From contig CP145419.1 in the NCBI GenBank assembly GCA_036867785.1, positions 744,001 through 808,000 on the forward strand: a DNA stretch of 64,000 bases. The letters are read 5' to 3'. The position numbers were made by a program, and so were the translations under genes. Below the pieces are notes generated by a model. The model did no database searches. It was given only the letters and a program-made list of their open reading frames with translations, and was not told where the DNA came from. This DNA is from Plasmodiophora brassicae (taxonomy: Eukaryota). Of the stretch, positions 11,331-45,501 are shown one piece after another. How positions within the stretch are numbered: the first letter of the stretch is position 1; each line of letters begins with the position of its first letter.

Positions 11331-12477
11331 TCAAACAGCTCTGGGTGTTGGTTGATATGTGTTTGCCCAGCAACCGTCCGGTCGGCAGACGGTCACGCGT
11401 ACTCTAACCGGGCACGTCGCCGAGACGGACACGGGCACCTTCCGCGGAGGCACCTGGACCTGTTTCCTGTGCAGCCTGGTGGCCCGCCGCCAGGCGAGCA
11501 ACGCTTTGCAGGACAACGCATGGGCCCAATGGAGCAGGGCACGTCTGGTCTGGGCTCTGGCTTGAACGCGCCGCTGCCAAACATGGAAACCGGCGCGTAA
11601 CTCTCGCAGACGAACCATGGCGTTGTACCAGCCCAGCAGCACAACACGCTGTCGACGCTCGCGACACCATTCCTGACATTGTCGCCGGACAGTGACCGCC
11701 TGGACGAGACGCCGCCGCCAGGTAACAAAGACGCGACGTCGAAGGGACCGGTGGTAGAACGCGGCCACGAGGTGGCGAACCTGGCGGGTCCTGGCGAGCC
11801 ACCATCGCAGAGCGCGCGATAGCTGCCGCGACGCATGCCGTTCGCGAACGACTTGCTCACGACGCCAACGCTGGAACTGGACGAGGCGGACGGCTGCCGC
11901 CATGCGATGCAGGACGCGGCGGCGCCGGAAGGCGCCCGCCTGTGCCTCGAGGGCGCATTGCCGAGCAGCGGCGATCCAGTCGTCCAATCGCTTCCGCGCT
12001 GCACGCCTGGCGACGGCCGCCTCGGCCACGAAGTCGGACGCGTTCGTCGCCGCCGACGACGTCATCGCGACGGCGTGCCCCAGCGACGCGTGGTGCCTGC
12101 CGTTGCCCAGATATTTTCTGCATGAGACGAATCACTTCGCGGAAGACACGGCGCCACGCACCCGGACACACGCAGCGGCCGCCTCTTTAGCTCAGTTGGC
12201 AGAGCATCCGCTTCGTAAGCGGGAGGTCGTGGGTTCGATCCCCATTGGAGGCATACGCGCGCGCAGCAACCTGTTTTGCCCCGAGGTTCTGTGCGGTTCG
12301 GCCGCGGCGCGGAACACCGGAAGCGCGACGACATCGGGACCCGGCCGGGTGATGATCCTCCCGACCGCATTGCCGTCCCGGGTTGCCGTTCTCCGGTTCG
12401 CGCCCGGGACTTGGTCCTACGCTCCTCTCCGTAGGACGAATTCGATAGGGCGTCGACACGTATCGTCCACGATGCAT
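11331..12477 (-). CDS. Sfi1-like centrin-binding repeat protein, multi-exon
   Basis: Periodic motifs ALRWW, RRVFVTWRR, VVLLGWY, GFHVWQ, KALLAWRR; in-frame splicing MHRGRY|DQVP...GQNR|KYLG. Confidence 0.65.
12181..12253 (+). tRNA. trnT-CGT: tRNA-Thr(CGT)
   Basis: Cloverleaf: GCCTCTT/TGGAGGC acceptor, GCTC/GAGC D-stem, TCCGC-TT CGT AA-GCGGG anticodon arm, GTGGG-TTCGATC-CCCAT T-arm; A and B boxes present. Confidence 0.95.
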
Positions 12478-14951: not shown

Positions 14952-17320
14952 ATGGCGCTCTGGAAATCGTACGCATTGCTCTTCGCGTTCCTTGCCGGGC
15001 GCTGCGCTCTCGGTGGCGATGACGACGCCGTCAGCGACGCAGTCAAGACCCGAGACTTCGACCTGAATATGGCGTGGGACGCTGATCAAGACCCTGTCCA
15101 CGACATGACGTCAAACGCGGTGCCCAACCGCGCCAACCCTCCTTTTATGGTCGCTGATGACGCCGATGACGACGTCAACGGCGATGCAGTCGACACCAAC
15201 GTGGACCGGAATATTGCCTGGTGTGCTCATCGAGACCTAGACCACAGCGTGGCGTCAAACACGGTGACGAATCACGCCCATCTCTCCTTTTATTGCCGCT
15301 GCTGACATCTGCCAGGGAATGAACGACATCGGCAACCTGGGCGACGCCGCCGTCGACGTGGCGATGTCAACGGCAGAGTCTAACAGAGGACGTGATCCAG
15401 CATCGTACGCCACCGATCACCTGCTCAGCAGCCCGCCAATCTGGGCCCCGACGGACGTCGTCAGCTACATGCATGGCTCTGTTGGGCAAACGTGGGTATC
15501 GTACAATCAACACCAGATCATGACGTCTAACTTTGCTGCTGGGGCGACAACATCCAGCTCGATCCCTCAGGGCACAACAGTTACGTGTGGCCAATGCGCA
15601 GGCCTCTTTATATACGGACTGATCCGTAAGCTCCTTAAATAGCCTATTCACGGACTAGAACAGGAGGTTGTTTACGGATTACACGGATCACCGTAAGGGA
15701 TGGAGCATTCTGTTGGAATTTATTGTTCTACACGAACGTCAGCGCCTGAATGTTGCGCTCCTTCAAGGGACAGGTCGGTGATGGCCATTCGGTGGACGTC
15801 TTTCTCTGACTTCACGATGGAGAAATCGCTCTCGACTTGCGCAGTCCCAGGAAAGACGGTTGCCAGGCCATCGCTGAACCTCTACAAAGATAGGAAGCGC
15901 CCCTGCACTACTTTCCAGCTGGATTCAAAGGTGGAAGTTCCGCTTAAGGCATCGAGAGATGCTCGCAGAACTGGTTCGCGAGAATATGCGGCAACCAGCT
16001 CCTGATGTTCCTGTTCTATGGCATCAATATCGGTCCGGGTCCAGCGAACCAGTAGACGGTCAATGTGTCGGCGAACACCAACACAAAACTGCCTCGGAGG
16101 CAAGGTAACAAGTTCTTGCGGCGTGACAGGAGGGACGTGGTCAGCGCTGGCGACATTATTCTCGTCGCGTTCTGCAACAATGCTCGAGATACCGGACAGA
16201 GACGACGAGTACAGGTGGATCGTGTTGTCGACAACATTGGCGAAGGTCCCTGAGCCCATCCAATGCGGCCATGAACAAACGAACCCATGTCCAGAATACA
16301 GTTCTCGACACGTTGGCGATTGACGCCGACCGGTGGCATTTCGACAGCACCCACGTCTCGTCGAGTTCGTCAACCTGTTCCATGTTTCAACAGCTCACGC
16401 CCTTGGACCTGGTTCAACAATCTGGAGCAAAGGTCGCCAAGCGCCTGACGCTGAATGCTGACGGTGAGTTCGGGACTTTGGATCGTCCTGAAAGTAACCA
16501 TGCAAGTTGCGGCGAATTCGTGTACAACCAACATCATAACCCACCACTCGGGAGGTGTCTTTCACTCGCGTTGTGGGCTTGCGCTTCGCGCCGACCTTCT
16601 CCTCCCTGCCGAAGTGGGCGCAGAAGAGACATTCCACCCCTATCACAACATTCGTGTGTTGCTGGTGGGACTGGGTGGGGCGAACGGCGTAATCAACCGG
16701 GTGAGAGGCCTGGAAATCCGTTGTACGCGCTCCCGACGGCATGACAACCACGAAAACTACCCCAACGCGAACTCGCTTATTTATGGACTGACCGCCAGCT
16801 TGATTACGGCGCGCCACGGACTTTTGGGGTCAAAATCCGTATATAAAGAGGCCTGCCAATGCGGCAACCAGTTTTTCAACAAATCTAGCCTAAGGCGGCA
16901 TTTGACACGCGGTTGCAAGGGGCCGGAGCCGACCACATCCAGCTCGGTCCCGAAGGACACTATGTGTGTCCAATGCGGCAAGAAGCTTTCCACCGAATGG
17001 AACCTAAGGCGGCACATGATACGCGGTTGCAAGGCGCCGGGGCCGACCACATCCAGCTCGGTCCCGGATGCCACCACAGTTACGTGCGTTCATTGCCGCA
17101 AGAAGGTATTCAAACATAATCTACTTCGACACCAATACCGCTGCAAGGCTCTCAAGGTGCAGACGTTGTCCTATTGCCCATAGACCATATTGCCCAAATC
17201 ATCTCGGGTTTCGCCATCGCCACTTCCTGTGCAGACACCTGAGGACTCCCCCCCCCCCCCACACATAATGAAGCTGGCACAGAATTATTGGGACTCGTCA
17301 CCGGATGGCTGGCTGTTGCC
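14952..17320 (+). pseudogene. Secreted zinc-finger protein, copy 1, disrupted
   Basis: Signal peptide MALWKSYALLFAFLAGRCALG; intron 15264-15315; C2HC/C2H2 fingers; hAT insertion in the first finger; 7-bp frameshifting insertion at 17183-17189; LTR insertion at 17321; paralog of 37412-38288. Confidence 0.85.
15599..16855 (-). mobile_element. Non-autonomous hAT DNA transposon (1257 bp) with a transposase C-terminal remnant
   Basis: 20-bp TIR CAGGCCTCTTTATATACGGA; 8-bp TSD CCAATGCG (15591-15598, 16856-16863); minus-strand GLATVFPGTAQVESDFSIVKSEKD...TDLSLEG. Confidence 0.92.
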
Positions 17321-17543
17321 TGTGCCGGCTCCAAGCTATAAGACAAGAATAGCTGTGATCCGGCTAGGCCGCCCTAAGAATGACGGACATGCACGGAGTG
17401 CGCACGGAGTCCGCACGGCGTCCGCGGGAGCTGCAGGTCGGGGACACAGACGATTATACTACACGGCTGATATACCATCACCGTTGGGACGTCACAGAGA
17501 TCTCTTGAACATCCTTTCGGGGAAGGTTTCAAAGAAGGACGCG

Positions 17544-20500
17544 ATGGTGGCCACCGCGCAGGAGATGCTGCTGGAAGATGACGTCGATGATCGACAACAA
17601 GGACAGAGCGTGCAAGGCTCAACGATCGTCCTGCAGATGAACAAGGCGCCGACCTTGAAGAGCATGGACCGCAAGGCCGTCACGACGTTCATGGCCGAGC
17701 TGAAGACGTATCGGAATCACTTCCGGGACGATCCGAATGCCAAAGGCCAGATCCCACGGTCAGTGAGGAGTATGATCGACCCCGGTCTGCTCAGGGCGAT
17801 CTGCAAGTGGGAACTCGGCACGGACGCCGAGGGGGTGACGGAGAGCGACCTGATGGACTGGATGAAGAGGCATCTGGAGCAGGATCGCTCGACGGACGCG
17901 AACATCGACCGGGAGATGCGGAAGCTGGCGATGAAGCTGACCATCACCACACCAGCGGCAAGGGTCGTGAACCTCGTGCAGCAGTACGAGGAATTGGTCG
18001 CGCGCAACGGGTGGCAGGACCTCTTCACGTCCCGCGAGGGACGGAAGAACCTGGTCAAGTACCTACTGGGTGCTGTGCGCCCATCCGGTTTACAAGCGCT
18101 CATGCGGACCCTCGTCATGAAGCGCCAGACCGATCTCCAGAAGGACCCTTTGGAATTCTATCGGGTGCTGAAGGAACGGGCTGCATCGTATGAGGAGACG
18201 ATGTTGTACATGGAGCCGGGACGTGAGGATGGCAAGGGGAAGGGAAAGGTCAAACCCACCCCGAAGAAGCGAGGGGCGCAGACGGATGAAGGAGGCGATG
18301 GAGGCCGGGACACGAAACGACACCGGAAGGACCTGCGATGTTTCAACTGTGACGAGGTTGGACATCCAGCGTTTCGTTGCCCGAAGAAGCCTACCAAGAA
18401 GCAGGTCGCAGACCTGCTGAAGGATCGCCGCAAGGGGCCAACGGGAAGGGATGGACCCCGTAAGGCCAAATCTGATAAAGATGACGACTTGTCAGAGTAC
18501 CCATGGCTTCCAGTGGTAGGAAGAGTGTCGGAGGGGGCGCAGAGGACAGGGGACCAAGTAGTCGTTCGTGTAAACGGACATGAGGAAGACTACGTTGGGG
18601 TTCTGGACAGTGGAGCGACATCGGTTGACGTTCTGATGCCATTGACCATAGCGCGCGAGCTAATGGAGCGGGACCCATTGTTAACAATGGAGAACCTCCA
18701 GAAGCCGGAAACGTTCTGTCTGGTAGACAGAGAAACGAAGCACACAGCCTACCATGTGATGATACTGGATCTGGGACTGACGACGACGGCAGGCGAACTG
18801 ATCACTCGCCGGCGCCGATGCCTTGTATGGGACATTCCTGAAAAGGAAATAATCCTAGGGGAGAGGCTGTTGGACGAGTTGGGTATCCACCCAAAGAAGG
18901 CCCTGGACGTACTCATTAAGAGCACGCCGAAGAAGGGGAATGACGTCATGGATGAAGTGCACAATATGGCAAACGAGATGCCACCTCTCTGGGAAGGGGA
19001 GGAAGAGGAAACAGAGGATGTGAGGATCGGAACCGATTCCACAGACTCCCTGGAAAGGGAGATGGACGGGATGGCCGAGCGCGCATTGAGGAATGGCCTA
19101 CCGCAAGCGATGGGGAAATCGCTTCGGAAACTCGTCAGAAGATATAGGGACGTTTGGCGTATGAGCATTGGACCTGATGGTCCAGCCAGGGTTACACCAT
19201 TTGTCACGGAGCTGAAACCGGATGCGGAACCTTACAGGTGCCGAGCCAGAAAGTACAGTATGGAGGACAGTGCTTTCATGGAGGAATTCGTCGCCCAATT
19301 GAAGAAGTATGGCCTAGTCGTTGAAAACTACAACGCGAAGTGGGCTTCACCGGTGGTGGTGGTGACGAAGCCAGGGGGCGGAAAGCGGTTCTGTGTTGAT
19401 CTCAGAGCTGTTAATGCCAAATGTGTCGCCGTGGCGTGGCCTATGCCACATCAGGAGGCGATACTCAGGAACCTGGCAGGCTCGAGGTTCTGGTTTAAGC
19501 TAGATGCGTTCAAAGGCTTCTGGATGATGCCGCTGGATGAAGCGTGTCAGGAGATCTTCTCCTTCATGACAGATAAGGGGGTGTATAAGCCAACGAGGTC
19601 GATGCAGGGGGGAATGAACTCCGCCCCTCAGTATCAAGGGAGGATGTTTGAGGTGTTCGGGGAACTTATGTTCCACAAACTAATCATATGGATCGATGAT
19701 CTAATGGGGCATGCCCAAAGGGAGGATGATTGGTTCCGAACGTTGGAACGGACTCTGATGCTAGCCGAACGGCACAGCATCAAGTTCAACGTGGAGAAGT
19801 GTGAGCTCTTCACAACAGAGGTTCGGTTCTGTGGAAGGATATTCACGCCAGAAGGGGTAAGGCACGATCCTGCTAGGATTGAGGCTTTAATGGCGATACC
19901 ACAGCCGAGGACGGCAAGGGACTTGCAACAATTCCTTATGGCAACTCAGTGGATGAGTAGGTCCATCCCTGAGTACAACAGGAAGGTACACCTGTTACAG
20001 AGGATATACGAGGATGCAATGAAGGACCAACCTGGCAGGACGAAAGCCATTGCCAGGAGGGTGCGATTGTGCAAATATGGATGGTCACCCGAACATGCGC
20101 TGGCATTCGAGAAACTGAAGATGGCAGTGGCGGACACGGTCCAACTAGCGTACCCGCGAAAGGACCGGATCCAATGCCTATTCTCAGATGCAAATGAGGT
20201 TAACAGCGCGGCGGTAGTCACACAGATTCCGCCTGAGGACTTGGGTAAACCAGTGCATGGGCAGCGACATGAACCGCTGGGTTTCGTCGGACACAAGTTC
20301 GCGGGCCCAGAGCGGAACTGGTCCACGGTGGAGAAGGAAGGGTTCGCGATCAAGGATGGGATTGACAAACTGGACTATCTCGTTACAACCAACGAGCAGT
20401 TTCGTTTGTTTACCGATCATAGGAATCTCGTGAGGATATTCTCACCAACGGACGTGTCAAAGCCAACGGCGCAGAAACTGCAACGATGGGCACTGGACAT

Positions 20501-20612
20501 ACAGAGGGTCAACTACGTCATTGAACACATTGCGGGGGAGGACAATGTGTGGTCGGATCTTATGACGCGGTGGGGTGCACCGGACGGTGGGCCTGATGAC
20601 CAGCACCTAGAG
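17544..20612 (+). pseudogene. Family A copy 1 gag-pol, 5' part (Gag, PR, RT, RNase H)
   Basis: ATG at 17544; CFNCDEVGHPAFRC, VLDSGA, LDAFKGFW, WIDDL; broken by the family B insertion. Confidence 0.92.
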
Positions 20613-23600
20613 TGTTCATCCAGAGTACCAGTACTCAGATGATGCTGCTCAGATGCTGCTGCCACCCGGTCACATGATCATGACCGTACTCGACCCCGCA
20701 GCGGCCCTTGCTGTGACGATCCTGTCCAAATACATCAGTTCGTTATATCACCAGGCGCCGACTCTTGCGACCGACCGCCCCCGTAGTGGGCAGCGGCGGC
20801 GTTAGCACAGAAGCTTCTTGCGCAAAGAGCCCCAAGCAAACGAACTCACTTAATGGCAGGAGGTGGCCGCAGAGCGCCCGTTCGTCTACAGATGGAGGAC
20901 GACGCCAGGACCAACTCCGACGCCGAGGCCAAGGAGCATGAATCGTCGACAGATGACGAAATCGATCGAGGGCTTCAGTCAACAAACCTGCACGGTAAGA
21001 GCCCGATCTTTATGCCTTTGAAACCGCCCATCCTACGTACCCTGAGCCTTACGGCCAAGGACGGAATTAACGATTTCCTCAAGAAATATAGGAAACACGT
21101 CGAGATCGTTAACGAGCGCCGACTGATCTACAAGGAGGATATTCATCCGCCAACGGTGAAGTCATGCATTACCGAGGACGTCCTCAGAGGGATGTCGAAA
21201 TATCGCCTACGTCAACCCGCCAGCACGATCACGGATGGCGACATCATGAGCTACTTGAGGTCAGTCCAACGCAGGGAGGCTGATGTCGAGAGTTCGACAG
21301 ACATCAAGGCGCTTCTCACGAAGACAGTGGTCATGAACCTGTCAATCAAGAGTATTGAGGAACGTGTCACGTCTTTCTTCGCCAAGTTCGATGAGCTAAT
21401 CGACGACTATGGGCTACAAGACACATACGCCAAAGGAACGAAAGGAACCAAGCGCAAGATCAAGGTATTACGCGGAGGTATCCGTCCCACTGACCTTGCG
21501 GTTCTAGTCGAACGCGCGATCGAGTTCGGAGGGTGCAGGGACGCTGAGAAGGACGAGCTCAAATTCTTCGACCTCGTCGACCGTCTTGCCAAAGAGCAGG
21601 ACAAACACTTCCGGCTGCAAGCTGAGAAGAAGAAGTCTCCAGCGCAGACCATGTCCCCACCTGCAGGTAAGAAAGGTAAGGACGTTGTTGCTCCGAATAG
21701 GAATGGCGGCAAGCATCCGACAAATCCGATCGGACTGAAGACAGCTCAATCGTCCACATCGCAAACGAAAGACGAATCGAGGGACATCCCCGAGCACATC
21801 CGAAAACGTTTCGAAGGTAAGGATCCTCCAAAGGCAGGTTGCCTAATCTGCAAGGAGCAGCACTGGGTCCAAGTGTGCCCGAAGGCAACTCAAGGAGAAC
21901 GCAAAGCTGCCATTGAAAAGTTCCAGAAAGAGCGCAAAGAGAAGGAGGAGAGTAAGGGCAACGCAGACACGGCAAAGCGCATGGGCCCGCCGTCGCCGTC
22001 AACACCGTCCCCTATGAGACTTCGCTTCCAGAACTCGCTCGACCTTCCATTCGAAGCCGATAGTGGTGCGACGAAGACCGTCATTTCGCAATCGCAACTG
22101 CTACGGATTCAAGCCATCCAGCATGTCCCAGTCAAAGTGTTCGACCATCCAACGGAGGCGAAACTTGCAACGATCGGGGCTACGACAACAATTGTCGCCA
22201 CAGCGATCGTGGACATCACCATTGTCCCACCTTCGCATGGCAAACCTGCACATCTACGCGGGCGGGAAATCAACGTATGTCGCGAAGACCTATCTGATGA
22301 CATTGTCCTTTTAGGAGCCCCGGAACTGGACGCGTTGGGTATCAATCCAGCTACACAACTGAAGGAGATGTTAATCGAGGCAAATGGTCCTATCATCATC
22401 GAAGCGGATCCGACCCCGGAACGTCACGCCCCAGGTGGTCAAGGGATCACGATGAGAGCGGTAAGACACCCGGAGGTAAGTGGAACAACTCGCGATCATG
22501 AGCCCCAATTGGACACCAATGATCCGGGTGACGACTATGATGTCGAAATCGGAGAACACTCCGATACAGACGTGGACAGGGCAATAGACCGGATGATACA
22601 ACGTGCAACTGACTCCGGTTTCCCTAACGATCAAGTCCCGCGTCTACGCACAACTGTCAATCGACACAAAGACATATGGCGAACGAAGCTTGGCCGTGAT
22701 CCACCTGCGAAAGTAAGTCCACTGAAACTACACTTCAAAGCAGATGCTCGTCCTGTTCGTTGCCGAACACGAAGGTATACCCTCGAACATCAAAAATTCA
22801 TGGATGATCACGTAGGAACCTTGGCGGAAAACGATTTTGTGTACCGCAATCCGCACAGCAGGTACGCGTCGCCGTGTCTGGTCGTCGACAAGAAGGACAC
22901 GGAGGTTCGCGGCCATCGGCTGACCGTCGACATCAATGAAGCCGTCAACAAACAGACCGAACGCATTGCATGGCCGATGCCTCACATCGACATCATCCTG
23001 ACCTACCTACGTTCCGCGACCATCTTCATGCTGTTCGATGCCTTTAAAGGCTATTGGCAATTTCCGTTGCACCCTGATTCGCAGGAGGCCTGCTCGTTCA
23101 TGACGCACATCGCCACGTTTACACCCAGGCGCATCATCCAGGGAATCGCTGATTGCGTGTTTGCGTTCCAGGCGGGAATGCAACAGGTGTTGGGGAAACT
23201 TCTATATATCTGCGCCCTACTCTGGATCGACGATATCCTCGGCTACGTATCTGGATTCGGAGCCTACATGGACACACTCGAATCTCTTCTCAACGCTTTC
23301 GACGAGTTTGGAGTTAAACTCAACCCTGATCGCTGCCAGTTATATCTCACTTCAGTGACATGGTGCGGTCGCGTTATATCCGCTGATGGAGTGTCGTTCG
23401 ATCGCTCGTATCTCAACGCCTTGCACGATCTATCAACTCCTATCACGGCTGCTGATCTCCAACAGTTCCTCTCGGGCCTCAATTGGGTCCGTTCTGTTAT
23501 CCCTCAATTCGCGGCACATGTTCATCCGCTACAGGATCTACTTCTGTCCGCTTCTCGTTCTGTCAGCAGTCTGAAGAAATCACACCTACGTCGAGTTCGT

Positions 23601-25948
23601 TTAGCCGACATCGGCTGGACCACTGACCATCTCACCAGTTTCAATTCTCTGAAGCATCGACTATCGGAGGCCATGACGCTGGCGCACACCAAGGACGAAT
23701 GGATCATGTGTCTCTTTCCGGATGCGAGTGACCGTTTCTGGTCTGTTTTCCTGTCGCAGATCCCTCCGGAAGATATTGATCTCCCGTACGGTGAGCAACA
23801 CCACGAACCTTTGTCGTTCATCTCGGGGACATTCCGTGGTTCTCAATTGAAGTGGGCGACCATTGAGAAGGAGGCCTACGCCATCATTGAAGGCTGCTAT
23901 CGCCTCAGACACTTCATCTCTATGTCAAAGCTGGCACTTCGAATCTTCACAGACCACCGTAATTTGGTTTTCATTCTGAACCCAGCCTCGGTTGCACGAA
24001 TTAGTCGGACGACCGGCGATCGCTTGGAGCGCTGGCGACTTCAGATTATCGACCTAGATTTTCACATTGAGCACATTGCTGGGGAGGACAACGTTTGGGC
24101 CGACCTCGCCACGCGGTGGGGCGTCGCCCTGCAACCACTCTCCTCATTTTCCCCTCCATCGTTCCGTTCTATTCGTCATATGGCAATTAATCTTGACTTC
24201 GACGATTACAAGATGACCGATGAGTTTATCTGGCCGTCTGTCGACGAGATTAGTAACGCTCAGACCGACTACATTCGCCAACACGACCTATCTGCCGTTT
24301 CTGATATTCTCCAACTCGAAGGGGACATGTCTCTCCACCTTAGCCCGGAATCTGGCTGGCGTACTCCAGACAATCAACTCTGGGTACCATCACATGCACT
24401 GCAGCTACGCATCGCAGTGATTTCACATATGGGACTGTCTGGTCATCAACTTGCTGCATCGACTATTTCGAGCATCGCGCAACTCTTCTGGTGGCCTGAT
24501 CTCGATTCCTTTGTTCGTGCATTTGTGGACAAATGCTTACACTGCCTACGCAACAAAGATTCGATGATCCCCCGACCTTATGGCACGGCTATGCATGCGG
24601 ACAAGCCCAATAAGGTCATCCACTATGACTTTCTGTTCTTATCCAAACCTCGTCCAGGCGATTCTCATCAACTTCGTTATGTTCTGGTTCTGAAGGACGA
24701 CGCTACAGCATTCGTCGAGTTAATTCCTTGTCAATTCGCGGATCACAGCGTTGTCGCCGAATCTCTTCTGGATTGGTTCAAACGTTTCGGCATTGTTTTC
24801 CAACATGTCTCTGACCGCGGCACACACTTCAAAAACGCGGTTATCGCCGAGCTTAATAGCCGGTTACACTGCAACCATCATTTCACAACTGCCTACACAC
24901 CTTGGGCGAACGGCACGGTTGAGGTTGTCAACAAGCGGCTTCTCTTTCTGCTGAAGTCCCTCCTCTCCGAGCTAAATCTTCCATTCCAGGATTGGCCGTA
25001 TGTCCTTCCGCTGATCAACATGACGGTAAATCACACTGTTCGATCAAGTGTGGGCTACGCGCCTGTCACGATGTTTACGGGTTTGCCACCCTCGACACCT
25101 ATCTCGATTATCTTCAACAAACGCATCGACGCGGTTATCGACGTACCGTTGACCCCTGACCGTCTCAAGGAAATGACGACGGAACTTATCGATTCTCTCG
25201 AGGACATGCACAAAGAAGTGGCACGTACACGCACCCATCTACGTGATCTCAAGCAACGCGCCCGGCGTCGCCGACGCAATGTTCGCGAGATCAACTTCAC
25301 GACGGGCGACTATGTTCTCGTGGCCAACCATGGCAAGCACTCCAAGTCCGAGTACAACTGGACTGGACCTGCCCAGATTATCGACACCATCAACGACTGG
25401 GTGTATCGAGTTCGAGATCTCTTGACTGATCATATCTCAGATGTACACGCCCAGCGCTTAATGTTCTATGCAGATGCGCACTTGAATGTCACCTCTTCCC
25501 TGAAGCACAACATCGCGCTCACCGGCGTGGCTTACCAAGTCAACGCAGTCGAGGACATTCGAGTCAATTCTACGTCAGGTGACACTGAACTACTGATCAA
25601 CTGGATCGGATTCGATGCCACCGACAATTCATGGGAACCTTACTCGGTCATGGCGGCCGATGTTCCTGATATCGTCAGGGCCTTCCTCGAACGACAAGCC
25701 GAAGGAGACCCGCTCTGCTCACGACTGTTAGCAGATTTCTAACACGGGGAGTGTTCATCCAGAGTACCAGTACTCAGATGATGCTGCTCAGATGCTGCTG
25801 CCACCCGGTCACATGATCATGACCGTACTCGACCCCGCAGCGGCCCTTGCTGTGACGATCCTGTCCAAATACATCAGTTCGTTATATCACCAGGCGCCGA
25901 CTCTTGCGACCGACCGCCCCCGTAGTGGGCAGCGGCGGCGTTAGCACA
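20613..25948 (+). mobile_element. Ty3/Gypsy chromoviral LTR retrotransposon, family B copy 1, intact
   Basis: 197-bp LTRs at 20613-20809 and 25752-25948; 5-bp TSD TAGAG; inserted in family A pol. Confidence 0.97.
20853..25742 (+). CDS. Family B Gag-Pol polyprotein, 1629 aa
   Basis: CLICKEQHWVQVC knuckle, ADSGA protease, FDAFKGYWQ/WIDD RT, RNase H, HHCC + DDE integrase, chromodomain (LLINWIGF...SWEP). Confidence 0.96.
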   Translation: MAGGGRRAPVRLQMEDDARTNSDAEAKEHESSTDDEIDRGLQSTNLHGKSPIFMPLKPPILRTLSLTAKDGINDFLKKYRKHVEIVNERRLIYKEDIHPPTVKSCITEDVLRGMSKYRLRQPASTITDGDIMSYLRSVQRREADVESSTDIKALLTKTVVMNLSIKSIEERVTSFFAKFDELIDDYGLQDTYAKGTKGTKRKIKVLRGGIRPTDLAVLVERAIEFGGCRDAEKDELKFFDLVDRLAKEQDKHFRLQAEKKKSPAQTMSPPAGKKGKDVVAPNRNGGKHPTNPIGLKTAQSSTSQTKDESRDIPEHIRKRFEGKDPPKAGCLICKEQHWVQVCPKATQGERKAAIEKFQKERKEKEESKGNADTAKRMGPPSPSTPSPMRLRFQNSLDLPFEADSGATKTVISQSQLLRIQAIQHVPVKVFDHPTEAKLATIGATTTIVATAIVDITIVPPSHGKPAHLRGREINVCREDLSDDIVLLGAPELDALGINPATQLKEMLIEANGPIIIEADPTPERHAPGGQGITMRAVRHPEVSGTTRDHEPQLDTNDPGDDYDVEIGEHSDTDVDRAIDRMIQRATDSGFPNDQVPRLRTTVNRHKDIWRTKLGRDPPAKVSPLKLHFKADARPVRCRTRRYTLEHQKFMDDHVGTLAENDFVYRNPHSRYASPCLVVDKKDTEVRGHRLTVDINEAVNKQTERIAWPMPHIDIILTYLRSATIFMLFDAFKGYWQFPLHPDSQEACSFMTHIATFTPRRIIQGIADCVFAFQAGMQQVLGKLLYICALLWIDDILGYVSGFGAYMDTLESLLNAFDEFGVKLNPDRCQLYLTSVTWCGRVISADGVSFDRSYLNALHDLSTPITAADLQQFLSGLNWVRSVIPQFAAHVHPLQDLLLSASRSVSSLKKSHLRRVRLADIGWTTDHLTSFNSLKHRLSEAMTLAHTKDEWIMCLFPDASDRFWSVFLSQIPPEDIDLPYGEQHHEPLSFISGTFRGSQLKWATIEKEAYAIIEGCYRLRHFISMSKLALRIFTDHRNLVFILNPASVARISRTTGDRLERWRLQIIDLDFHIEHIAGEDNVWADLATRWGVALQPLSSFSPPSFRSIRHMAINLDFDDYKMTDEFIWPSVDEISNAQTDYIRQHDLSAVSDILQLEGDMSLHLSPESGWRTPDNQLWVPSHALQLRIAVISHMGLSGHQLAASTISSIAQLFWWPDLDSFVRAFVDKCLHCLRNKDSMIPRPYGTAMHADKPNKVIHYDFLFLSKPRPGDSHQLRYVLVLKDDATAFVELIPCQFADHSVVAESLLDWFKRFGIVFQHVSDRGTHFKNAVIAELNSRLHCNHHFTTAYTPWANGTVEVVNKRLLFLLKSLLSELNLPFQDWPYVLPLINMTVNHTVRSSVGYAPVTMFTGLPPSTPISIIFNKRIDAVIDVPLTPDRLKEMTTELIDSLEDMHKEVARTRTHLRDLKQRARRRRRNVREINFTTGDYVLVANHGKHSKSEYNWTGPAQIIDTINDWVYRVRDLLTDHISDVHAQRLMFYADAHLNVTSSLKHNIALTGVAYQVNAVEDIRVNSTSGDTELLINWIGFDATDNSWEPYSVMAADVPDIVRAFLERQAEGDPLCSRLLADF

Positions 25949-27552: not shown

Positions 27553-28338
27553 GCTAGTCATGCTTTTTTCCCGGATGCGCGCTGGGTTATTTTAATGCCG
27601 ACGGCCATGTGACGACAGAAGCCAAAACTGTGTTCTACGAAGATTGAGACTTAATTATGTTAATTAGACTATATTAAGGAGAAGACATGATTAGGATACA
27701 CCACCACTGAAGACACCTGCAAGGAGGAGCATTTCTTTGAAGGAGGGGAATGTGCCGGCTCCAAGCTATAAGACAAGAATAGCTGTGATCCGGCTAGGCC
27801 GCCCTAAGAATGACGGACATGCACGGAGTGCGCACGGAGTCCGCACGGCGTCCGTGGGAGCTGCAGGTCGGGGACACAGACGATTATACTACACGGCTGA
27901 TATACCATCACCGTTGGGACGTCACAGACGTCCCTTGTGGTGGACGGGCAACAACCAATTGGTGCTCGCCCGGGCCTTCCGCGTCTGTCGAGGGGTGTTG
28001 TCCAGCGGATCGCTGCGGCCCTTTGCGGCGACCCTCGATCTGCCTGTCACCTGCAGGCAGACCCCGTCTGGCGAAGGCGGCGTAGAGCAGCAGCAGTAGT
28101 CGGAGACCATCAATGCGCCGCGCGTGTAGCTGATCGCAGCGACGTTCGCAGGAACGTGCCACATGCGCTTCCTCGAGTCGGCTTATCGCTGTACCGGCTG
28201 ACACGTGCTTCGCTGTTGTGCCCCGCAACGTCTGAGCCGCTGTCAGGTCGGGTCTGTCAGGTCGAGTCGCAATGACAATCAATCAGCGGCGTCACTTTGC
28301 GTGTGAACTGTGCCTCCAGATAGAGGTCCAGCGAGGCA

Positions 28339-31300
28339 TGTGACGTCCCAACGGTGATGGTATATCAGCCGTGTAGTATAATCGTCTGTGTCCCCGACCT
28401 GCAGCTCCCGCGGACGCCGTGCGGACTCCGTGCGCACTCCGTGCATGTCCGTCATTCTTAGGGCGGCCTAGCCGGATCACAGCTATTCTTGTCTTATAGC
28501 TTGGAGCCGGCACATTCCCCTCCTTCAACGAAATGCTCCTCCTTGCAGGTGTCTTCAGTGGTGGTGTATCCTAATCATGTCTTCTCCTTAATATAGTCTA
28601 ATTAACATAATTAAGTCTCAATCTTCGTAGAACACAGTTTTGGCTTCTGTCGTCACATGGCCGTCGGCATTAAAATAACCCAGCGCGCATCCGGGAAAAA
28701 AGCATGACTAGCCTACTGGACTCCTTCCGCCTTAAGTAACTCCTTAACCTCATCAGCAAGGTGATGTTTCTCCTTCCTCATCCTGGCGGCATGTGCCTTC
28801 ACCAGCTTCGGTACATCCATCGCCAACCTGCAGATTGGCTCCCATGAATCCTCCGCTTCAGAGAAACCCTTCCATCCGATCAACAATTCCAATTCCCCTG
28901 TCTCCGGACTGTGCCTGCAGTCCTTGAAGACTTCAATGGCGAAACGCTCATTGTCATAATCCATCTGTCGCTTCAGTTCCTCAGTGGCATTCACTTTGCC
29001 ATGTTCATAGAGGCGAACGCGGTCCCCGTGAACGGTTCGAGTGTCCGTCTCATTGAACATATTCCTCACCTCGTAGGTGTAGTTCTCGTGGCTATCAGTT
29101 ATTTGATATAGGCCCCGCCACTTCATAAAGAGCTTCTTGCCCGGAACCTTACCCGGTTCAGGCAATCCGATGAGTACATAGTCACCGATCTGAAAGTTCG
29201 GTGCAGTTGCTCGTCGGTACGCGTCGCTCCTCTTCCTGTGTACGGCTCGGATTTTCTTCGATTGCTGCACTGCTCCCTTGTGCATTTCATTCAGCGACGT
29301 CTGCAATTGCATGACTAGCTCCTGAATATGCTCCTTTGAGAGTGTAGCTTCCCCATACTTCTCATCCCCTGGCCTCTTGAACACTTGCTTCAGCGGGTTG
29401 TCTGGTTGACGTCCCATCATCACTGTCACTGGCGCATTCCCGTTGGTACGCGCCTGCGACCTGTGATTGATCGTGTGTTCAATGTTGTGGTTCAACCATG
29501 GCCAATCGTATTTGTCCCACTGCAATTCAGACAGAAGTGCTCTGACTAGTTGCAAGTAGTTCCTGTTGATCACCTCAATTGATCCATTACTGTAATGCCC
29601 ATAGGCAACAGTCGGGTGATGAGCAAATCCACATCGACGCGCCAGTTCCTTCACAACGTTTGCCAGAAAGCAAGACGCCATGTCTGACACCATCAACTCA
29701 AACGTTCCGAAGATAGCCCTCCATTCGAGCAGTGCCTCTACAGTGGTTTCCGCATTGGGTGTATGGTCAGGAGTAATCTTGACCATGCCAGACAGATCAT
29801 CCCTGATTATCAGGTTCCATTGCAGATCATGTCTTCCGCCCTTCTGAGCCGCCATCATGTATAGCCAATCCAAGTGAATCACCTGATTCGGCCTAACACC
29901 ATGAACAGCTGTTCCCAATGGCCTGGGAATCCTAACCCCGCCCCTTGTCGGTAGACAGTTCAAACACGCGTTGCAGAACGTCCTCATGTCCTCATCGCAG
30001 TGTGCCCAATGGCAGAACTCCCCCAACTTCCTCAACGAGGCCTTCAGTCCTAGATGCCCACTGTTTCCGCCCGCATGAGCAATAGCGCATAGCTGCAGCT
30101 TCAGCTCGTTGCATTCGTCTGGTATGATCACCTGTCCCTTCCCTGTGACGAAGAGATCATCACCATTCTTCGGTCGTTTCGTTCCTCTGAGCCATTTCCT
30201 CTGAGCCTTACGGATTTCGTCCACGGTCGGCCATTGGAATTCCTTCCTTTGTAACGGCCGTACCCGATATCCGTCCTCAATTTGAAGCGTTATCCTCCTG
30301 ATCGTGCGTACCTCTAGGTGCTGGTCATCAGGCCCACCGTCCGGTGCACCCCACCGCGTCATAAGATCCGACCACACATTGTCCTCCCCCGCAATGTGTT
30401 CAATGACGTAGTTGACCCTCTGTATGTCCAGTGCCCATCGTTGCAGTTTCTGCGCCGTTGGCTTTGACACGTCCGTTGGTGAGAATATCCTCACGAGATT
30501 CCTATGATCGGTAAACAAACGAAACTGCTCGTTGGTTGTAACGAGATAGTCCAGTTTGTCAATCCCATCCTTGATCGCGAACCCTTCCTTCTCCACCGTG
30601 GACCAGTTCCGCTCTGGGCCCGCGAACTTGTGTCCGACGAAACCCAGCGGTTCATGTCGCTGCCCATGCACTGGTTTACCCAAGTCCTCAGGCGGAATCT
30701 GTGTGACTACCGCCGCGCTGTTAACCTCATTTGCATCTGAGAATAGGCATTGGATCCGGTCCTTTCGCGGGTACGCTAGTTGGACCGTGTCCGCCACTGC
30801 CATCTTCAGTTTCTCGAATGCCAGCGCATGTTCGGGTGACCATCCATATTTGCACAATCGCACCCTCCTGGCAATGGCTTTCGTCCTGCCAGGTTGGTCC
30901 TTCATTGCATCCTCGTATATCCTCTGTAACAGGTGTACCTTCCTGTTGTACTCAGGGATGGACCTACTCATCCACTGAGTTGCCATAAGGAATTGTTGCA
31001 AGTCCCTTGCCGTCCTCGGCTGTGGTATCGCCATTAAAGCCTCAATCCTAGCAGGATCGTGCCTTACCCCTTCTGGCGTGAATATCCTTCCACAGAACCG
31101 AACCTCTGTTGTGAAGAGCTCACACTTCTCCACGTTGAACTTGATGCTGTGCCGTTCGGCTAGCATCAGAGTCCGTTCCAACGTTCGGAACCAATCATCC
31201 TCCCTTTGGGCATGCCCCATTAGATCATCGATCCATATGATTAGTTTGTGGAACATAAGTTCCCCGAACACCTCAAACATCCTCCCTTGATACTGAGGGG

Positions 31301-33549
31301 CGGAGTTCATTCCCCCCTGCATCGACCTCGTTGGCTTATACACCCCCTTATCTGTCATGAAGGAGAAGATCTCCTGACACGCTTCATCCAGCGGCATCAT
31401 CCAGAAGCCTTTGAACGCATCTAGCTTAAACCAGAACCTCGAGCCTGCCAGGTTCCTGAGTATCGCCTCCTGATGTGGCATAGGCCACGCCACGGCGACA
31501 CATTTGGCATTAACAGCTCTGAGATCAACACAGAACCGCTTTCCGCCCCCTGGCTTCGTCACCACCACCACCGGTGAAGCCCACTTCGCGTTGTAGTTTT
31601 CAACGACTAGGCCATACTTCTTCAATTGGGCGACGAATTCCTCCATGAAAGCACTGTCCTCCATACTGTACTTTCTGGCTCGGCACCTGTAAGGTTCCGC
31701 ATCCGGTTTCAGCTCCGTGACAAATGGTGTAACCCTGGCTGGACCATCAGGTCCAATGCTCATACGCCAAACGTCCCTATATCTTCTGACGAGTTTCCGA
31801 AGCGATTTCCCCATCGCTTGCGGTAGGCCATTCCTCAATGCGCGCTCGGCCATCCCGTCCATCTCCCTTTCCAGGGAGTCTGTGGAATCGGTTCCGATCC
31901 TCACATCCTCTGTTTCCTCTTCCTCCCCTTCCCAGAGAGGTGGCATCTCGTTTGCCATATTGTGCACTTCATCCATGACGTCATTCCCCTTCTTCGGCGT
32001 GCTCTTAATGAGTACGTCCAGGGCCTTCTTTGGGTGGATACCCAAGTCGTCCAACAGCCTCTCCCCTAGGATTATTTCCTTTTCAGGAATGTCCCATACA
32101 AGGCATCGGCGCCGGCGAGTGATCAGTTCGCCTGCCGTCGTCGTCAGTCCCAGATCCAGTATCATCACATGGTAGGCTGTGTGCTTCGTTTCTCTGTCTA
32201 CCAGACAGAACGTTTCCGGCTTCTGGAGGTTCTCCATTGTTAACAATGGGTCCCGCTCCATTAGCTCGCGCGCTATGGTCAATGGCATCAGAACGTCAAC
32301 CGATGTCGCTCCACTGTCCAGAACCCCAACGTAGTCTTCCTCATGTCCGTTTACACGAACGACTACTTGGTCCCCTGTCCTCTGCGCCCCCTCCGACACT
32401 CTTCCTACCAGGGGTCCATCCCTTCCCGTTGGCCCCTTGCGGCGATCCTTCAGCAGGTCTGCGACCTGCTTCTTGGTAGGCTTCTTCGGGCAACGAAACG
32501 CTGGATGTCCAACCTCGTCACAGTTGAAACATCGCAGGTCCTTCCGGTGTCGTTTCGTGTCCCGGCCTCCATCGCCTCCTTCATCCGTCTGCGCCCCTCG
32601 CTTCTTTGGGGTGGGTTTGACCTTTCCCTTCCCCTTGCCATCCTCACGTCCCGGCTCCATGTACAACATCGTCTCCTCATACGATGCAGCCCGTTCCTTC
32701 AGCACCCGATAGAATTCCAAAGGGTCCTTCTGGAGATCGGTCTGGCGCTTCATGACGAGGGTCCGCATGAGCGCTTGTAAACCGGATGGGCGCACAGCAC
32801 CCAGTAGGTACTTGACCAGGTTCTTCCGTCCCTCGCGGGACGTGAAGAGGTCCTGCCACCCGTTGCGCGCGACCAATTCCTCGTACTGCTGCACGAGGTT
32901 CACGACCCTTGCCGCTGGTGTGGTGATGGTCAGCTTCATCGCCAGCTTCCGCATCTCCCGGTCGATGTTCGCGTCCGTCGAGCGATCCTGCTCCAGATGC
33001 CTCTTCATCCAGTCCATCAGGTCGCTCTCCGTCACCCCCTCGGCGTCCTTGCCGAGTTCCCACTTGCAGATCGCCCTGAGCAGACCGGGGTCGATCATAC
33101 TCCTCACTGACCGCGGGATCTGGCCCTTGGCGTTCGGATCGTCCCGGAAGTGATTCCGATACGTCTTCAGCTCGGCCATGAACGTCGTGACGGCCTTGCG
33201 GTCCATGCTTTTCAAGGTCGGCGCCTTGTTCATCTGCAGGACGATCGTTGAGCCTTGCACGCTCTGTCCTTGTTGTCGATCATCGACGTCATCTTCCAGC
33301 AGCATCTCCTGCGCGGTGGCCACCATCGCGTCCTTCTTTGAAACCTTCCCCGAAAGGATGTTCAAGAGATCTCTGTGACGTCCCAACGGTGATGGTATAT
33401 CAGCCGTGTAGTATAATCGTCTGTGTCCCCGACCTGCAGCTCCCACGGACGCCGTGCGGACTCCGTGCGCACTCCGTGCATGTCCGTCATTCTTAGGGCG
33501 GCCTAGCCGGATCACAGCTATTCTTGTCTTATAGCTTGGAGCCGGCACA
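28339..33549 (-). mobile_element. Family A copy 2, full length with an uninterrupted ORF
   Basis: LTRs at 33374-33549 (5') and 28339-28514 (3'); near-identical to copy 1. Confidence 0.97.
28713..33326 (-). CDS. Family A Gag-Pol polyprotein, 1537 aa (intron-less variant)
   Basis: Single open frame with all domains; lacks the 54-nt segment present in copies 1 and 3. Confidence 0.95.
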   Translation of the reverse strand: MVATAQEMLLEDDVDDRQQGQSVQGSTIVLQMNKAPTLKSMDRKAVTTFMAELKTYRNHFRDDPNAKGQIPRSVRSMIDPGLLRAICKWELGKDAEGVTESDLMDWMKRHLEQDRSTDANIDREMRKLAMKLTITTPAARVVNLVQQYEELVARNGWQDLFTSREGRKNLVKYLLGAVRPSGLQALMRTLVMKRQTDLQKDPLEFYRVLKERAASYEETMLYMEPGREDGKGKGKVKPTPKKRGAQTDEGGDGGRDTKRHRKDLRCFNCDEVGHPAFRCPKKPTKKQVADLLKDRRKGPTGRDGPLVGRVSEGAQRTGDQVVVRVNGHEEDYVGVLDSGATSVDVLMPLTIARELMERDPLLTMENLQKPETFCLVDRETKHTAYHVMILDLGLTTTAGELITRRRRCLVWDIPEKEIILGERLLDDLGIHPKKALDVLIKSTPKKGNDVMDEVHNMANEMPPLWEGEEEETEDVRIGTDSTDSLEREMDGMAERALRNGLPQAMGKSLRKLVRRYRDVWRMSIGPDGPARVTPFVTELKPDAEPYRCRARKYSMEDSAFMEEFVAQLKKYGLVVENYNAKWASPVVVVTKPGGGKRFCVDLRAVNAKCVAVAWPMPHQEAILRNLAGSRFWFKLDAFKGFWMMPLDEACQEIFSFMTDKGVYKPTRSMQGGMNSAPQYQGRMFEVFGELMFHKLIIWIDDLMGHAQREDDWFRTLERTLMLAERHSIKFNVEKCELFTTEVRFCGRIFTPEGVRHDPARIEALMAIPQPRTARDLQQFLMATQWMSRSIPEYNRKVHLLQRIYEDAMKDQPGRTKAIARRVRLCKYGWSPEHALAFEKLKMAVADTVQLAYPRKDRIQCLFSDANEVNSAAVVTQIPPEDLGKPVHGQRHEPLGFVGHKFAGPERNWSTVEKEGFAIKDGIDKLDYLVTTNEQFRLFTDHRNLVRIFSPTDVSKPTAQKLQRWALDIQRVNYVIEHIAGEDNVWSDLMTRWGAPDGGPDDQHLEVRTIRRITLQIEDGYRVRPLQRKEFQWPTVDEIRKAQRKWLRGTKRPKNGDDLFVTGKGQVIIPDECNELKLQLCAIAHAGGNSGHLGLKASLRKLGEFCHWAHCDEDMRTFCNACLNCLPTRGGVRIPRPLGTAVHGVRPNQVIHLDWLYMMAAQKGGRHDLQWNLIIRDDLSGMVKITPDHTPNAETTVEALLEWRAIFGTFELMVSDMASCFLANVVKELARRCGFAHHPTVAYGHYSNGSIEVINRNYLQLVRALLSELQWDKYDWPWLNHNIEHTINHRSQARTNGNAPVTVMMGRQPDNPLKQVFKRPGDEKYGEATLSKEHIQELVMQLQTSLNEMHKGAVQQSKKIRAVHRKRSDAYRRATAPNFQIGDYVLIGLPEPGKVPGKKLFMKWRGLYQITDSHENYTYEVRNMFNETDTRTVHGDRVRLYEHGKVNATEELKRQMDYDNERFAIEVFKDCRHSPETGELELLIGWKGFSEAEDSWEPICRLAMDVPKLVKAHAARMRKEKHHLADEVKELLKAEGVQ

Positions 33550-34070
33550 CGCTGGGAGACCTCCCGATTGACACTCAATCTGGAATCCATAATTGCCCGC
33601 TTACCTCGGTTCTGCAAGACCATCAGGCTGGGCATAAGCAGTGCCGACGTGAAGTTGAGGGACCGTTATCGGCATTTCGTGGCGGGTGGTGCATATCAGG
33701 CCAAAGCGATACCTGCTGCAGCGACTTCTTCGGAAGCGGATGTTCTCCCGAGGACGGCGGGCGAGGCAACACACGTTGGGCGGCAGCGTGTCGCGCCCGT
33801 CGACCTGCAACCTGGATGTGTTCCAAACGGTCATGACGTACCGGAGGGGCGCCCTCAGTGCAGGCGACGACGGCGCGCTCGGTCATGAGTCAGACCAACG
33901 TACCACGGCGCAGCAGCATCGATCGATCGGCAATGCCCTGATGGCAGGCTCCCTTGCCACAGCGACTGCCAGGCAGCACTCATCATATGCTGAAATAGGG
34001 ACCTCGTTACGACATTGTGGTGTGTCATCCCACCCAATCTGAGCATTCGGAGCCGCTGGTCCTGGATATA

Positions 34071-37411: not shown

Positions 37412-38288
37412 ATGGCGCTTTGGAAATCGTGCGCAGCATTGCTCTTCGCGGTCCTAGCCGGCGGCCGCTGCGCTCTCGGGCCCGATGACGACGTCGACCG
37501 CGACGCAGTCGAGACCTACTTTGACCTGAATATGGCGTGGAATGCTGATGACCACGACATGACGTCAAACGCGGTGCCCAACCACGCCCACGCTCCCTTT
37601 ATGGGCGCTGATGACGCCGATGGCGACGTCGACAGCGACGCAGTCAAGACCTACATTGACCTGAATATTGCCTGGTATGCTCATCGAGACCTAGACCACA
37701 GTATGACGTCAGACAAGGTGCCGGACCACGCCCATCGCTCCTTTTATTGCCGCTGCTGACATCTGGCAGGGAATGAACGACATCGGCAACCTGGGCGACG
37801 CCGGCGACGATGTGGCGATGTCAACGGCAGCGTCGAGCGTGGGACGTCGTCACATCGAGCGGAACGATGACGTACGCGCTGCAGTACCGGCCGGTACCTC
37901 TAACTGCGGAACGATGCATGATGCAGGGTCGCACGCCATAGATCACCAGCTCAGCGCCACGTCGGCCTGGGCTTCGGCGGGCGTCGCCAGCTACATGCAA
38001 CAGCAGCTAACGACGTCTAACGTTGACGCTGGGGAGACAACGTCCAGCTCGGTCCCGAAGTACATATACCCGGAAGTTGCCTGTACCCATTGCGGCAAGG
38101 AGGTCGCCAAACGCAGCCGACTTCGGCACCGGAAGTACCATTGCCCGGCTCGCAAGGTGCAGACCGCGTTGTGGTATTGCCAATGTTGCCCGTATCCAAG
38201 GTCATTCATCCGCCACGATTCCCTGCTCAAACACCGGAGGAAACGTCACACGAAAGACCAGGAACAGGCAAGCCCACCATTTCAGTGA
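37412..38288 (+). CDS. Secreted zinc-finger protein, copy 2, intact (~274 aa), effector-like
   Basis: Signal peptide MALWKSCAALLFAVLAGGRCALG; phase-0 intron 37718-37769; CTHC...H...C finger and CQCC...H...H finger with basic KHRRKRH. Confidence 0.82.
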
Positions 38289-38771
38289 AGGCACAGAATC
38301 GGAACTCGTCACAGGCTTCCTGGTCGTGCCTCGCCGGTTGGCACGGTTCGCACGGAAAGACATGCCCCATGGTCGGCAGGAGCCATAAGCAGGATCGTTG
38401 GGAACATCGATCACAGGGCGGACGCTGACGCGTACCGTCGTCACCACCAGACGGGATCTGCCTGCACGTACACGACAGGCAGGTCGAGCAGCGTCCAGAC
38501 AGGCGCAGGACTCGCGCCGTCGTGTCGGCAAAGGACTGCGACGCGCCTGGCACACGCTTCGACAGACGCGGGTTCGTTCCTTGGGCGAGCACCTGCATGT
38601 TGTCAGTCGACCGCAAGGGTCGCCTAGCTCGCCGATAACTGAGATTCAGTATGCCTGCTGCACATTCTCCCATATCACGAAGCCACGCGTTAGAGACCTA
38701 TCCACTTTAGAAGACGAGGCTGTGGATTGCATTCTCGCTATCCTGCCTATGTAATGTAGACTGTAAAATCG

Positions 38772-43562: not shown

Positions 43563-44059
43563 GTTCCGGAACTGCAGAACCGTGTTCCGGTGTTCCAGCG
43601 TGTTTCCGTATCTGCAGAGGTCTGTAAGTGTTTCCGGAGTGGCAAGCGGCACTTGTGCGTACGGATCGCGTGGAATTCCGCCCCGGTCCATTTTTTGGCC
43701 CCCTTGCGGCCCGGGAACCGTGCAGCCGACCAGAGCCTGAGTGGTAAATTAGTAGCGATGGCAAGAGCGCCGCGGGCATTTCGAAATCATTGGTGTTTCG
43801 TCATGGGTGGCGGCAAGCTCATATGGAAAGAGACTCCTCCCGGACCGCAGCAGGTGAAGTTGGAACGGCTGTTTAGGGACGGTGTGTGCCGGCTCCAAGC
43901 TATAAGACAAGAATAGCTGTGATCCGGCTAGGCCGCCCTAAGAATGACGGACATGCACGGAGTGCGCACGGAGTCCGCACGGCGTCCGTGGGAGCTGCAG
44001 GTCGGGGACACAGACGATTATACTACACGGCTGATATACCATCACCGTTGGGACGTCAC

Positions 44060-44791: not shown

Positions 44792-45275
44792 GACGTCACA
44801 GAGATCTCTTGAACATCCTTTCGGGGAAGGTTTCAAAGAAGGACGCGATGGTGGCCACCGCGCAGGAGATGCTGCTGGAAGATGACGTCGATGATCGACA
44901 ACAAGGACAGAGCGTGCAAGGCTCAACGATCGTCCTGCAGATGAACAAGGCGCCGACCTTGAAGAGCATGGACCGCAAGGCCGTCACGACGTTCATGGCC
45001 GAGCTGAAGACGTATCGGAATCACTTCCGGGACGATCCGAATGCCAAAGGCCAGATCCCACGGTCAGTGAGGAGTATGATCGACCCCGGTCTTGTCACGA
45101 CTGAGTCGTGTTGGCGACTCAGCCGGCACCAAATTGGGCTCCTTCGTAGCGCACTGGGTACAATAAACGTCCACGGCGCGGACCGACCTCAGTCGGTCAA
45201 TCCGTGTGGTTGACTCATCGTGTTCGGTCGTCACATTTTGACCGACTAACCTTCTGTCGTCGTCTTGTCTCGACT

Positions 45276-45495: not shown

Positions 45496-45501
45496 GCATT
45501 C

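Follow-up and report, generated by a model that had tools for sequence, protein, structure and literature searches.

To our knowledge, the start of cDNA synthesis in LTR elements without a tRNA site has been solved only for Tf1. Elements of the Tf1/sushi type carry a primer-binding site (PBS) that is complementary to the 5' end of the transcript inside the LTR, according to the excerpt of the report used here (PMC4600332). Another arrangement was described for the copia superfamily by Donnart et al. (2017), whose report, in its excerpted text, covers 44 fungal GalEa elements without a tRNA PBS (PMC5445492). Their "Conserved Hairpin Site" (CHS) occupies the 9 nt after the LTR and, with the final A of the LTR included, constitutes a 10-bp palindrome. 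A second, inverse-complementary element of 9 nt, with a conserved A/A mismatch, is located 12-41 bp downstream. The authors proposed that the site replaces the PBS, yet according to the same excerpt found no fitting model (PMC5445492). Among the papers searched, the term otherwise appears only in one on bivalve TRIMs.

Skipper chromoviruses of dictyostelids are described, in the excerpt of their report, as having neither a TGG nor a complement in the left LTR, and a novel self-priming mechanism was proposed for them (PMC5006619). Ty3 dimerises via a 6-nt palindrome away from the PBS, as stated in the excerpted text (PMC11381356). Our literature search, covering titles and the openings of abstracts, returned no palindromic primer site described for gypsy elements.

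The window, i.e. the whole stretch of 64,000 nucleotides of Plasmodiophora brassicae DNA analysed here, is a nest of LTR retrotransposons. The polyproteins of two families, A and B, contain the Pfam domains RVT_1, RT_RNaseH and Integrase_H2C2 in that order, and B contains rve as well. Both have a C-terminal Chromo domain (26.5 bits in A and 27.9 bits in B, cut-off 25.1), and a CCHC knuckle is found in A with a score below the cut-off. A and B are Ty3/gypsy LTR retrotransposons with a chromodomain; their overall amino-acid identity is 32%, and it reaches 47% within the RNase H block. Host-side segments that flank the nest have a further copy elsewhere in the window: 27929-27998 and 38552-38622 are 73% identical in inverted orientation, and 15095-15393 and 37549-37847 are 88% identical. 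Helicase fragments (DEAD, Helicase_C; RecQ-like by atlas features) are distributed over three frames of the minus strand at 61742-63702, a splitting that may reflect introns or decay.

Family A is present in the window in three copies (A1, A2 and A3) and has an LTR of 176 bp (TGTGCC...GTCACA). In A1, on the plus strand, alignment of the LTR copies places the 5' LTR at 17321-17496 and the 3' LTR at 27751-27926; the element is interrupted by the insertion of B1. A3 is an uninterrupted element on the minus strand (28339-33549 by LTR comparison), with the 5' LTR at 33374-33549, the 3' LTR at 28339-28514 and the polyprotein ORF at 28713-33635. A2 starts at 43885 on the plus strand and contains three interruptions. 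Its 5' LTR extends over 43885-44059 without the last base, which is found beyond a 732-bp insertion. The A1 5' LTR agrees with the 3' copies up to ...GTCACA. Contigs of the public run X15 break exactly at 17321 and 17496, and one of them spans precisely this interval. At the junction, the terminal CACA is followed by GAGATCTCTTGA. The primer-binding position is occupied by the palindrome AGAGATCTCT (17496-17505, plus strand), which is part of the 17-nt motif TCACAGAGATCTCTTGA read from the window at 17492-17508. The letters of the palindrome are identical in all three copies, the other two being located at 33365-33374 on the minus strand (A3) and, together with the displaced last LTR base, at 44800-44809 on the plus strand (A2).

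Comparison of the flanks of A1 and A3 showed no matching target duplication, and their LTRs still read TG...CA. Among the flanks examined (17316-17320, 27927-27931, 28334-28338 and 33550-33554), the A1 5' flank at 17316-17320 and the A3 3' flank both read TGCC, which would fit an inversion by recombination between A1 and A3 in their opposite orientations; the remaining flank pair does not match. The A2 3' LTR (58041-58169) matches over the first ~129 bases and then diverges, being truncated or carrying a further insertion. The 732-bp element at 44060-44791, within the last bases of the A2 5' LTR, carries terminal inverted repeats (TATAGATCTGTTAT...) and is flanked by a target duplication of 8 bp, GACGTCAC; it is rich in GTTATATAAC repeats and looks like a hAT-type MITE. 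The A2 5' flank was considered as an LTR remnant and rejected on inspection. The resemblance of the A1 3' flank to the PBS, and the inverted repeat GGGACGTC-ACA-GACGTCCC, are regarded as coincidence because a host paralogue of this flank exists at about 38.55-38.62 kb.

Family B has an LTR of 197 bp (TGTTCATCC...GTTAGCACA) and is represented in the window by two copies. B1 (20613-25948, plus strand) is nested in A1 with the target duplication TAGAG, and its LTRs are located at 20613-20809 (5') and 25752-25948 (3'). Its empty site is visible in the uninterrupted A sequence of A2, at 50890-50905. B2 (52202-57537, minus strand) is nested in A2 with the target duplication GAGGC, with the 5' LTR at 57341-57537 and the 3' LTR at 52202-52398. 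B1 and B2 are independent insertions; they are located in separate A copies, at positions of A that do not correspond, and have opposite orientations. The 5-bp target duplications of both copies fix the LTR end at CACA, which is followed by GAAGCTTCTTGC. The palindrome AGAAGCTTCT is found at the primer-binding position (20809-20818, plus strand) within the 17-nt motif GCACAGAAGCTTCTTGC (20805-20821), and its letters are identical in B2 (57332-57341, minus strand). A second palindrome, TTGCGCAA, overlaps the first at 20818-20825. Further palindromes are present in the leaders: GGTGGCCACC (17546-17555) overlaps the A start codon, and GGTGGCCGC is found in B.

Since the LTR ends were fixed independently of the palindromes, it follows that both 10-bp palindromes begin on the last LTR base. 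Each consists of an 8-nt palindrome directly after the terminal CA, extended to 10 nt by the last base of the LTR. An earlier note on this DNA, made from its letters, had given the two motifs and placed a perfect 10-bp palindrome on the last LTR base; the window letters agree with it, and the placement holds in 3/3 copies of A and 2/2 copies of B.

Neither family has a TGG after the 5' LTR, as had also been noticed: the first one is located at +49 nt in A and +45 nt in B, with none within 44 nt. The only tRNA gene in the window, a tRNA-Thr (CGT) at 12181-12253, offers a complement of at most 4 nt to the A site and 6 nt to the B site, the latter 15 nt past the LTR end. A tRNA-type PBS is absent from A and B, with the tRNA comparison covering the one tRNA of the window. 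An Rfam search of 17300-21000 (3,701 bases, E up to 10) returned a single weak and unrelated hit.

A match between the PBS and the transcript 5' end, which the earlier note had named as a finding that would count against its own reading, was looked for in both families and not found. In both families, the longest Tf1-type complement to the own LTR measures 5 nt. With wobble pairs and bulges allowed, shuffled LTRs did equally well in 442/500 (A) and 164/500 (B) trials, and a second run gave 896/1000 (A) and 321/1000 (B). No complement of at least 6 nt exists between the family A LTR and the first 40 nt after it; for family B, the sole complement to the first 40 nt is an 8-mer that begins 30 nt beyond the LTR. 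Elsewhere in the elements, the only complements are a 10-mer at A position 4167 and a number of 8-mers, none of them common to A and B.

A third element provides the control for this comparison. Element C (45093-48070, 2,978 bp, plus strand) is nested in the gag of A2, has identical 143-bp LTRs with the target duplication GGTCT, and encodes only gag, with two CCHC knuckles, and protease. Its PBS TTGACCGACT (45238-45247) is located 2 nt past the LTR and is a perfect complement to AGTCGGTCAA (45191-45200) in its own LTR; this 10-nt pairing was equalled by 9/1000 shuffles. Element C thus carries a Tf1-type self-priming signature. An AATAAA is present just upstream. The test accordingly picks up the signature where it exists, and A and B are without it.

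Perfect 10-bp palindromes occur at 108 of the 64,000 positions of the window, a background of 0.0017 per position. A palindrome on this exact base in two families would be very unlikely to arise by chance if the families were independent. As A and B are related, covariation constitutes a better test than the chance rate. The alignment of the two sites contains 8 pairs with 16/16 cells paired; five pairs are invariant and three are changed on both sides (T-A to G-C, G-C to A-T and A-T to G-C), so the compensatory nature that the earlier note ascribed to the differences is borne out by this two-sequence check. With the partners slid by 1-3 columns, pairing was 43-58% and no double changes were seen. 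A shuffle control attained the observed value in 61/500 trials, which is as far as this control can go with two sequences, so that its formal power is low. We argue from these compensatory changes that selection may maintain the self-pairing itself. The accompanying statement that the LTRs are otherwise unalignable is slightly overstated, as the two families have a short TATA-like block in common, along with a GGTGGCC block close to the start codon.

The site had been interpreted as a hairpin, and this part of the earlier proposal is not supported. The 17-mer has a predicted energy of only -0.5 (A) and -2.0 (B) kcal/mol as a monomer, and over 27 and 61 nt the folds do not surpass those of shuffles (95, 68, 137 and 173 of 200). 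As a homodimer, the 17-mer is predicted at -17.2 (A) and -19.5 (B) kcal/mol, and the bare 10-mer at -14.0 (A) and -13.3 (B) kcal/mol. The innermost pairs, two of the three that covary, cannot form within one strand, which favours pairing between molecules over a hairpin. On these modelled energies, the site is aptly called a palindrome rather than a hairpin.

We compared the contigs of four public runs (X19, X15, X16 and X10) over 17000-25740. The runs containing the stretch are labelled as plant or soil metagenomes, or bear coded organism names, and are represented by assembled contigs only. The contigs of X15, X16 and X10 report no alternative letters at either palindrome, and those of X15 bridge both the A and the B junction. 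X19, an RNA run, covers B only, with one contig (20748-20926) crossing the B junction. One variant contig of X10 departs after 20817, where four other letters replace TT before the leader resumes and TCTTG is lost; it retains only the 8-nt core GAAGCTTC. The element-internal contigs of X10 have a word depth roughly 30-40x that of the flank contig, a depth that is not a copy number.

In the standard scheme for LTR elements, strong-stop DNA covers everything 5' of the primer 3' end, and this copied part turns into U5; integrases trim a few bases at most. In family B, the terminal CACA of the 3' LTRs adjoins the target duplication. With this end and so little trimming, the primer has to anneal within about 0-3 nt of the final A, a position on the palindrome itself (GAGATCTC in A, GAAGCTTC in B). 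A primer that is complementary to a palindrome in turn bears the same palindrome. We consider it likely that A and B carry a selected, tRNA-independent cis-element at the primer position, built to the same design as the GalEa site. The evidence base for this assessment is two families that are related to each other.

Our main reading, which we hold at a probability of roughly 0.4, is self-priming in trans through the palindrome, between two genomic RNAs, by a series of dimer pairing, nick, priming and switch that we infer. In a dimer, the site on one genomic RNA would find its counterpart on the other and pair with it over 10 bp. As in Tf1, one strand would then receive an RNase H-type nick 3' of the palindrome, leaving a 3' end that could copy the U5-R of the partner RNA. 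Copying the primer back would regenerate the palindrome, which would explain the appearance of changes in compensatory pairs. On a wider and less probable view, in which this is a general mode, two packaged RNAs would be joined by the palindrome and one of them, its leader nicked immediately 3' of the site, would prime the other, making dimerisation and priming one event. The priming mechanism itself would then keep the site palindromic, turning single mutations into compensatory pairs, and the mode would have arisen independently in copia (GalEa) and in gypsy (the A/B clade).

It is conceivable, and in our view rather unlikely, that the palindrome serves only as a signal for dimerisation or packaging, like a retroviral dimer initiation site, and that another RNA primes over the same bases. 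The strong predicted homodimer energies agree with such a role, as do the extra palindromes at the A start codon (GGTGGCCACC) and adjoining the B palindrome (TTGCGCAA), and short palindromes in the 5' leader are reported to drive the dimerisation of Ty3 (PAL6; excerpt of PMC11381356). Against this, the site fills the only place available for a primer, given the 3' LTR end, and in each family a separate primer would need to bear that very palindrome. The dimer sites known to date are placed in hairpin loops away from the PBS, whereas A and B form no stable hairpin there. In MMTV, palindromes inside the PBS were dispensable for dimerisation, according to the excerpted report (PMC8096270).

A further candidate partner of the palindrome is located beside the gag start, and was noticed by folding, i.e. 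post hoc. In family A, CAGGAGAT at 17559-17566 (plus strand; gag ATG at 17544) pairs with 17500-17507, the core pairing being AUCUCUUG with CAGGAGAU. In family B, GCAGGAGGT at 20856-20864 (plus strand; gag ATG at 20853) pairs with 20813-20821, with the core GCUUCUUGC and GCAGGAGGU. The partner thus lies 51 nt (A) or 34 nt (B) downstream and forms 8-9 bp with a G.U wobble and no A/A mismatch, a pairing that is significant for A only. The duplex is predicted at -24.4 kcal/mol in A, where 1/500 shuffles are as good, compared to 76/500 shuffles in B. A 141-nt fold of A pairs 17488-17507 with 17559-17586 (z = -2.10, with 5/200 shuffles folding as well), and the fold of B has z = 0.13. Aligned on the shared letters, 8/8 pairs form in both families: five are identical, one shows a double and two show single compensatory changes. 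The shared CAGGAG motif is found 15 nt after the ATG in frame in A and 4 nt after it out of frame in B, and because the reading frames differ, coding does not explain it.

This partner raises the possibility of snap-back priming in cis. Here CAGGAG(A/G)T would fold onto the 3' half of the palindrome, be cut at its 3' end and prime the same RNA, as the would-be counterpart of CHSeq1/CHSeq2 in GalEa. The complete pairing in both families with its compensatory changes, the differing reading frames and the energy of the A duplex and fold speak for it, as does the conserved second element 12-41 bp downstream in GalEa, as given in the excerpt (PMC5445492). We nevertheless consider it unlikely, since B performs no better than chance, CAGGAG occurs 25 times in the window and the motif emerged only after folding. 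Moreover, following the retroviral scheme, copying back in each cycle would be expected to erase the conserved G.U wobble, and likewise the A/A mismatch of GalEa, and the cut would part the leader from gag-pol.

The same motif also bears on our main reading of self-priming in trans. In the predicted minimum-energy dimers of the 131-nt leaders, the palindrome pairs with the CAGGAG arm and not with the other palindrome, which counts against palindrome-palindrome pairing as far as energy models go. Under priming in trans, the CAGGAG motif by the gag AUG, paired with the palindrome's 3' half, would probably keep the monomer in a closed state. The suggestion of the earlier note that one genomic RNA pairs with the other is sustained in that RNA-RNA pairing fits better than any tested alternative, and weakened by the preference of the predicted leader dimers for the CAGGAG arm.

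A fragment of a host RNA, such as a tRNA half, an snRNA or an rRNA end, could also act as the primer, and half-tRNA primers are known from copia lineages, according to the excerpted source (PMC6317226). This is very unlikely for A and B. By simple logic, each family would need a host RNA of its own, bearing a palindrome of 8-10 nt that differs from that of the other family; the single tRNA of the window pairs over no more than 4 nt (A) or 6 nt far from the LTR end (B), and no Rfam family matches in 17300-21000.

Still less can be said for a chance likeness on an inherited junction without function. In its favour, only two related families are compared and 5/8 pairs are simply conserved. Against it, 6/6 changed bases keep the pairing, the two families agree in position down to the single base, palindromes occur at a rate of 0.0017 per position, and the same design is found independently in GalEa. 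Self-priming from the first transcript bases is hardly credible for A and B: they share the chromodomain with the Tf1/sushi group and the signature is present in element C of the same window, yet A has no complement of at least 6 nt, B has only the 8-mer 30 nt past the LTR end, and the best LTR-PBS duplexes are no better than those of shuffles.

Relatives of the two families were sought in metagenomes and viral contigs. The metagenome scans gave 596 and 376 pattern matches, of which none was confirmed. Scans of viral contigs by protein and by DNA pattern returned one relative, L001, a gypsy element with 23% amino-acid identity. The contig (1-5210) is a collapsed circular assembly with a 5,087-bp unit, a terminal overlap of 123 nt and one LTR; it represents a gypsy LTR retrotransposon rather than an ordinary virus genome. 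Close resemblance to A is seen in its polypurine tract and LTR start, and a 12-bp palindrome is located at 2728-2739, a few bases after ...GTAGTCAC. As the LTR end cannot be fixed from one copy, we treat L001 as a hint and do not count it. The 8-mer TTGCGCAA also occurs in L001 (2827-2834), 10 nt before its start codon. The other 4 viral contigs (L002, L003, L004, L006 and L007, two of these loci having the same letters) were rejected as chance hits.

Among the known systems, a palindrome able to join two genomic RNAs through the 5' leader is shared with HIV-1 (DIS) and Ty3 (PAL6). These palindromes are 6 nt long and placed in hairpin loops separate from the PBS, whereas those of A and B measure 8-10 nt, have no supporting hairpin and are located at the PBS position itself. 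A kissing loop, i.e. a palindrome in the loop of a stable hairpin away from the PBS, is accordingly not found in A and B. The U5:AUG interaction of HIV-1 offers a possible parallel for the competition between the palindrome and the pairing at the start codon. Skipper has a polypyrimidine stretch and, in the excerpt of its report, no palindrome, in which it differs from A and B (PMC5006619).

With the Tf1/sushi group (Tf1, Tj1), A and B have in common that they are chromodomain gypsy elements, that they are tRNA-independent, that their own RNA is the likely primer and that a cut in an RNA duplex would be needed. The LTR-complementary PBS described for this group in the excerpted text (PMC4600332) is carried by C, whereas A and B have none. 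As element C is found in the same window, the two modes that dispense with a tRNA can be compared side by side within a single genome. That palindromic primer sites constitute a third general mode of starting, beside tRNA and Tf1-type 5'-end priming, is a tentative and somewhat doubtful generalisation. Families of this kind will be under-called by annotation tools that include a tRNA PBS in their LTR scoring.

The closest likeness is to GalEa, a precedent that, together with the competing CAGGAG partner near the start codon, goes beyond the earlier note. Within the excerpted description (PMC5445492), the GalEa elements share with A and B the absence of a tRNA PBS, a 10-bp palindrome on the same base, a downstream element able to pair with it, TG...CA LTRs and 5-bp target duplications. 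The palindromes AGAGATCTCT and AGAAGCTTCT both agree with the definition of the GalEa site given there. The letters differ, being CTGATCAGT or CTAATTAGT in GalEa and GAGATCTCT or GAAGCTTCT in A and B. The second element of GalEa is 12-41 bp away and has an A/A mismatch, whereas in A and B the distance is 34-51 nt, the element reaches into the region of the gag start and a G.U wobble takes the place of the mismatch. GalEa has the copia gene order, in contrast to the order RT, RNase H, integrase and chromodomain in A and B. By analogy, the sites of A and B may be called CHS-like, while the gypsy domain order sets the elements apart from GalEa itself. The palindromic site of GalEa has stood unexplained since 2017, and a site of this design, on the corresponding base of elements from an unrelated superfamily, provides a second, independent test system.
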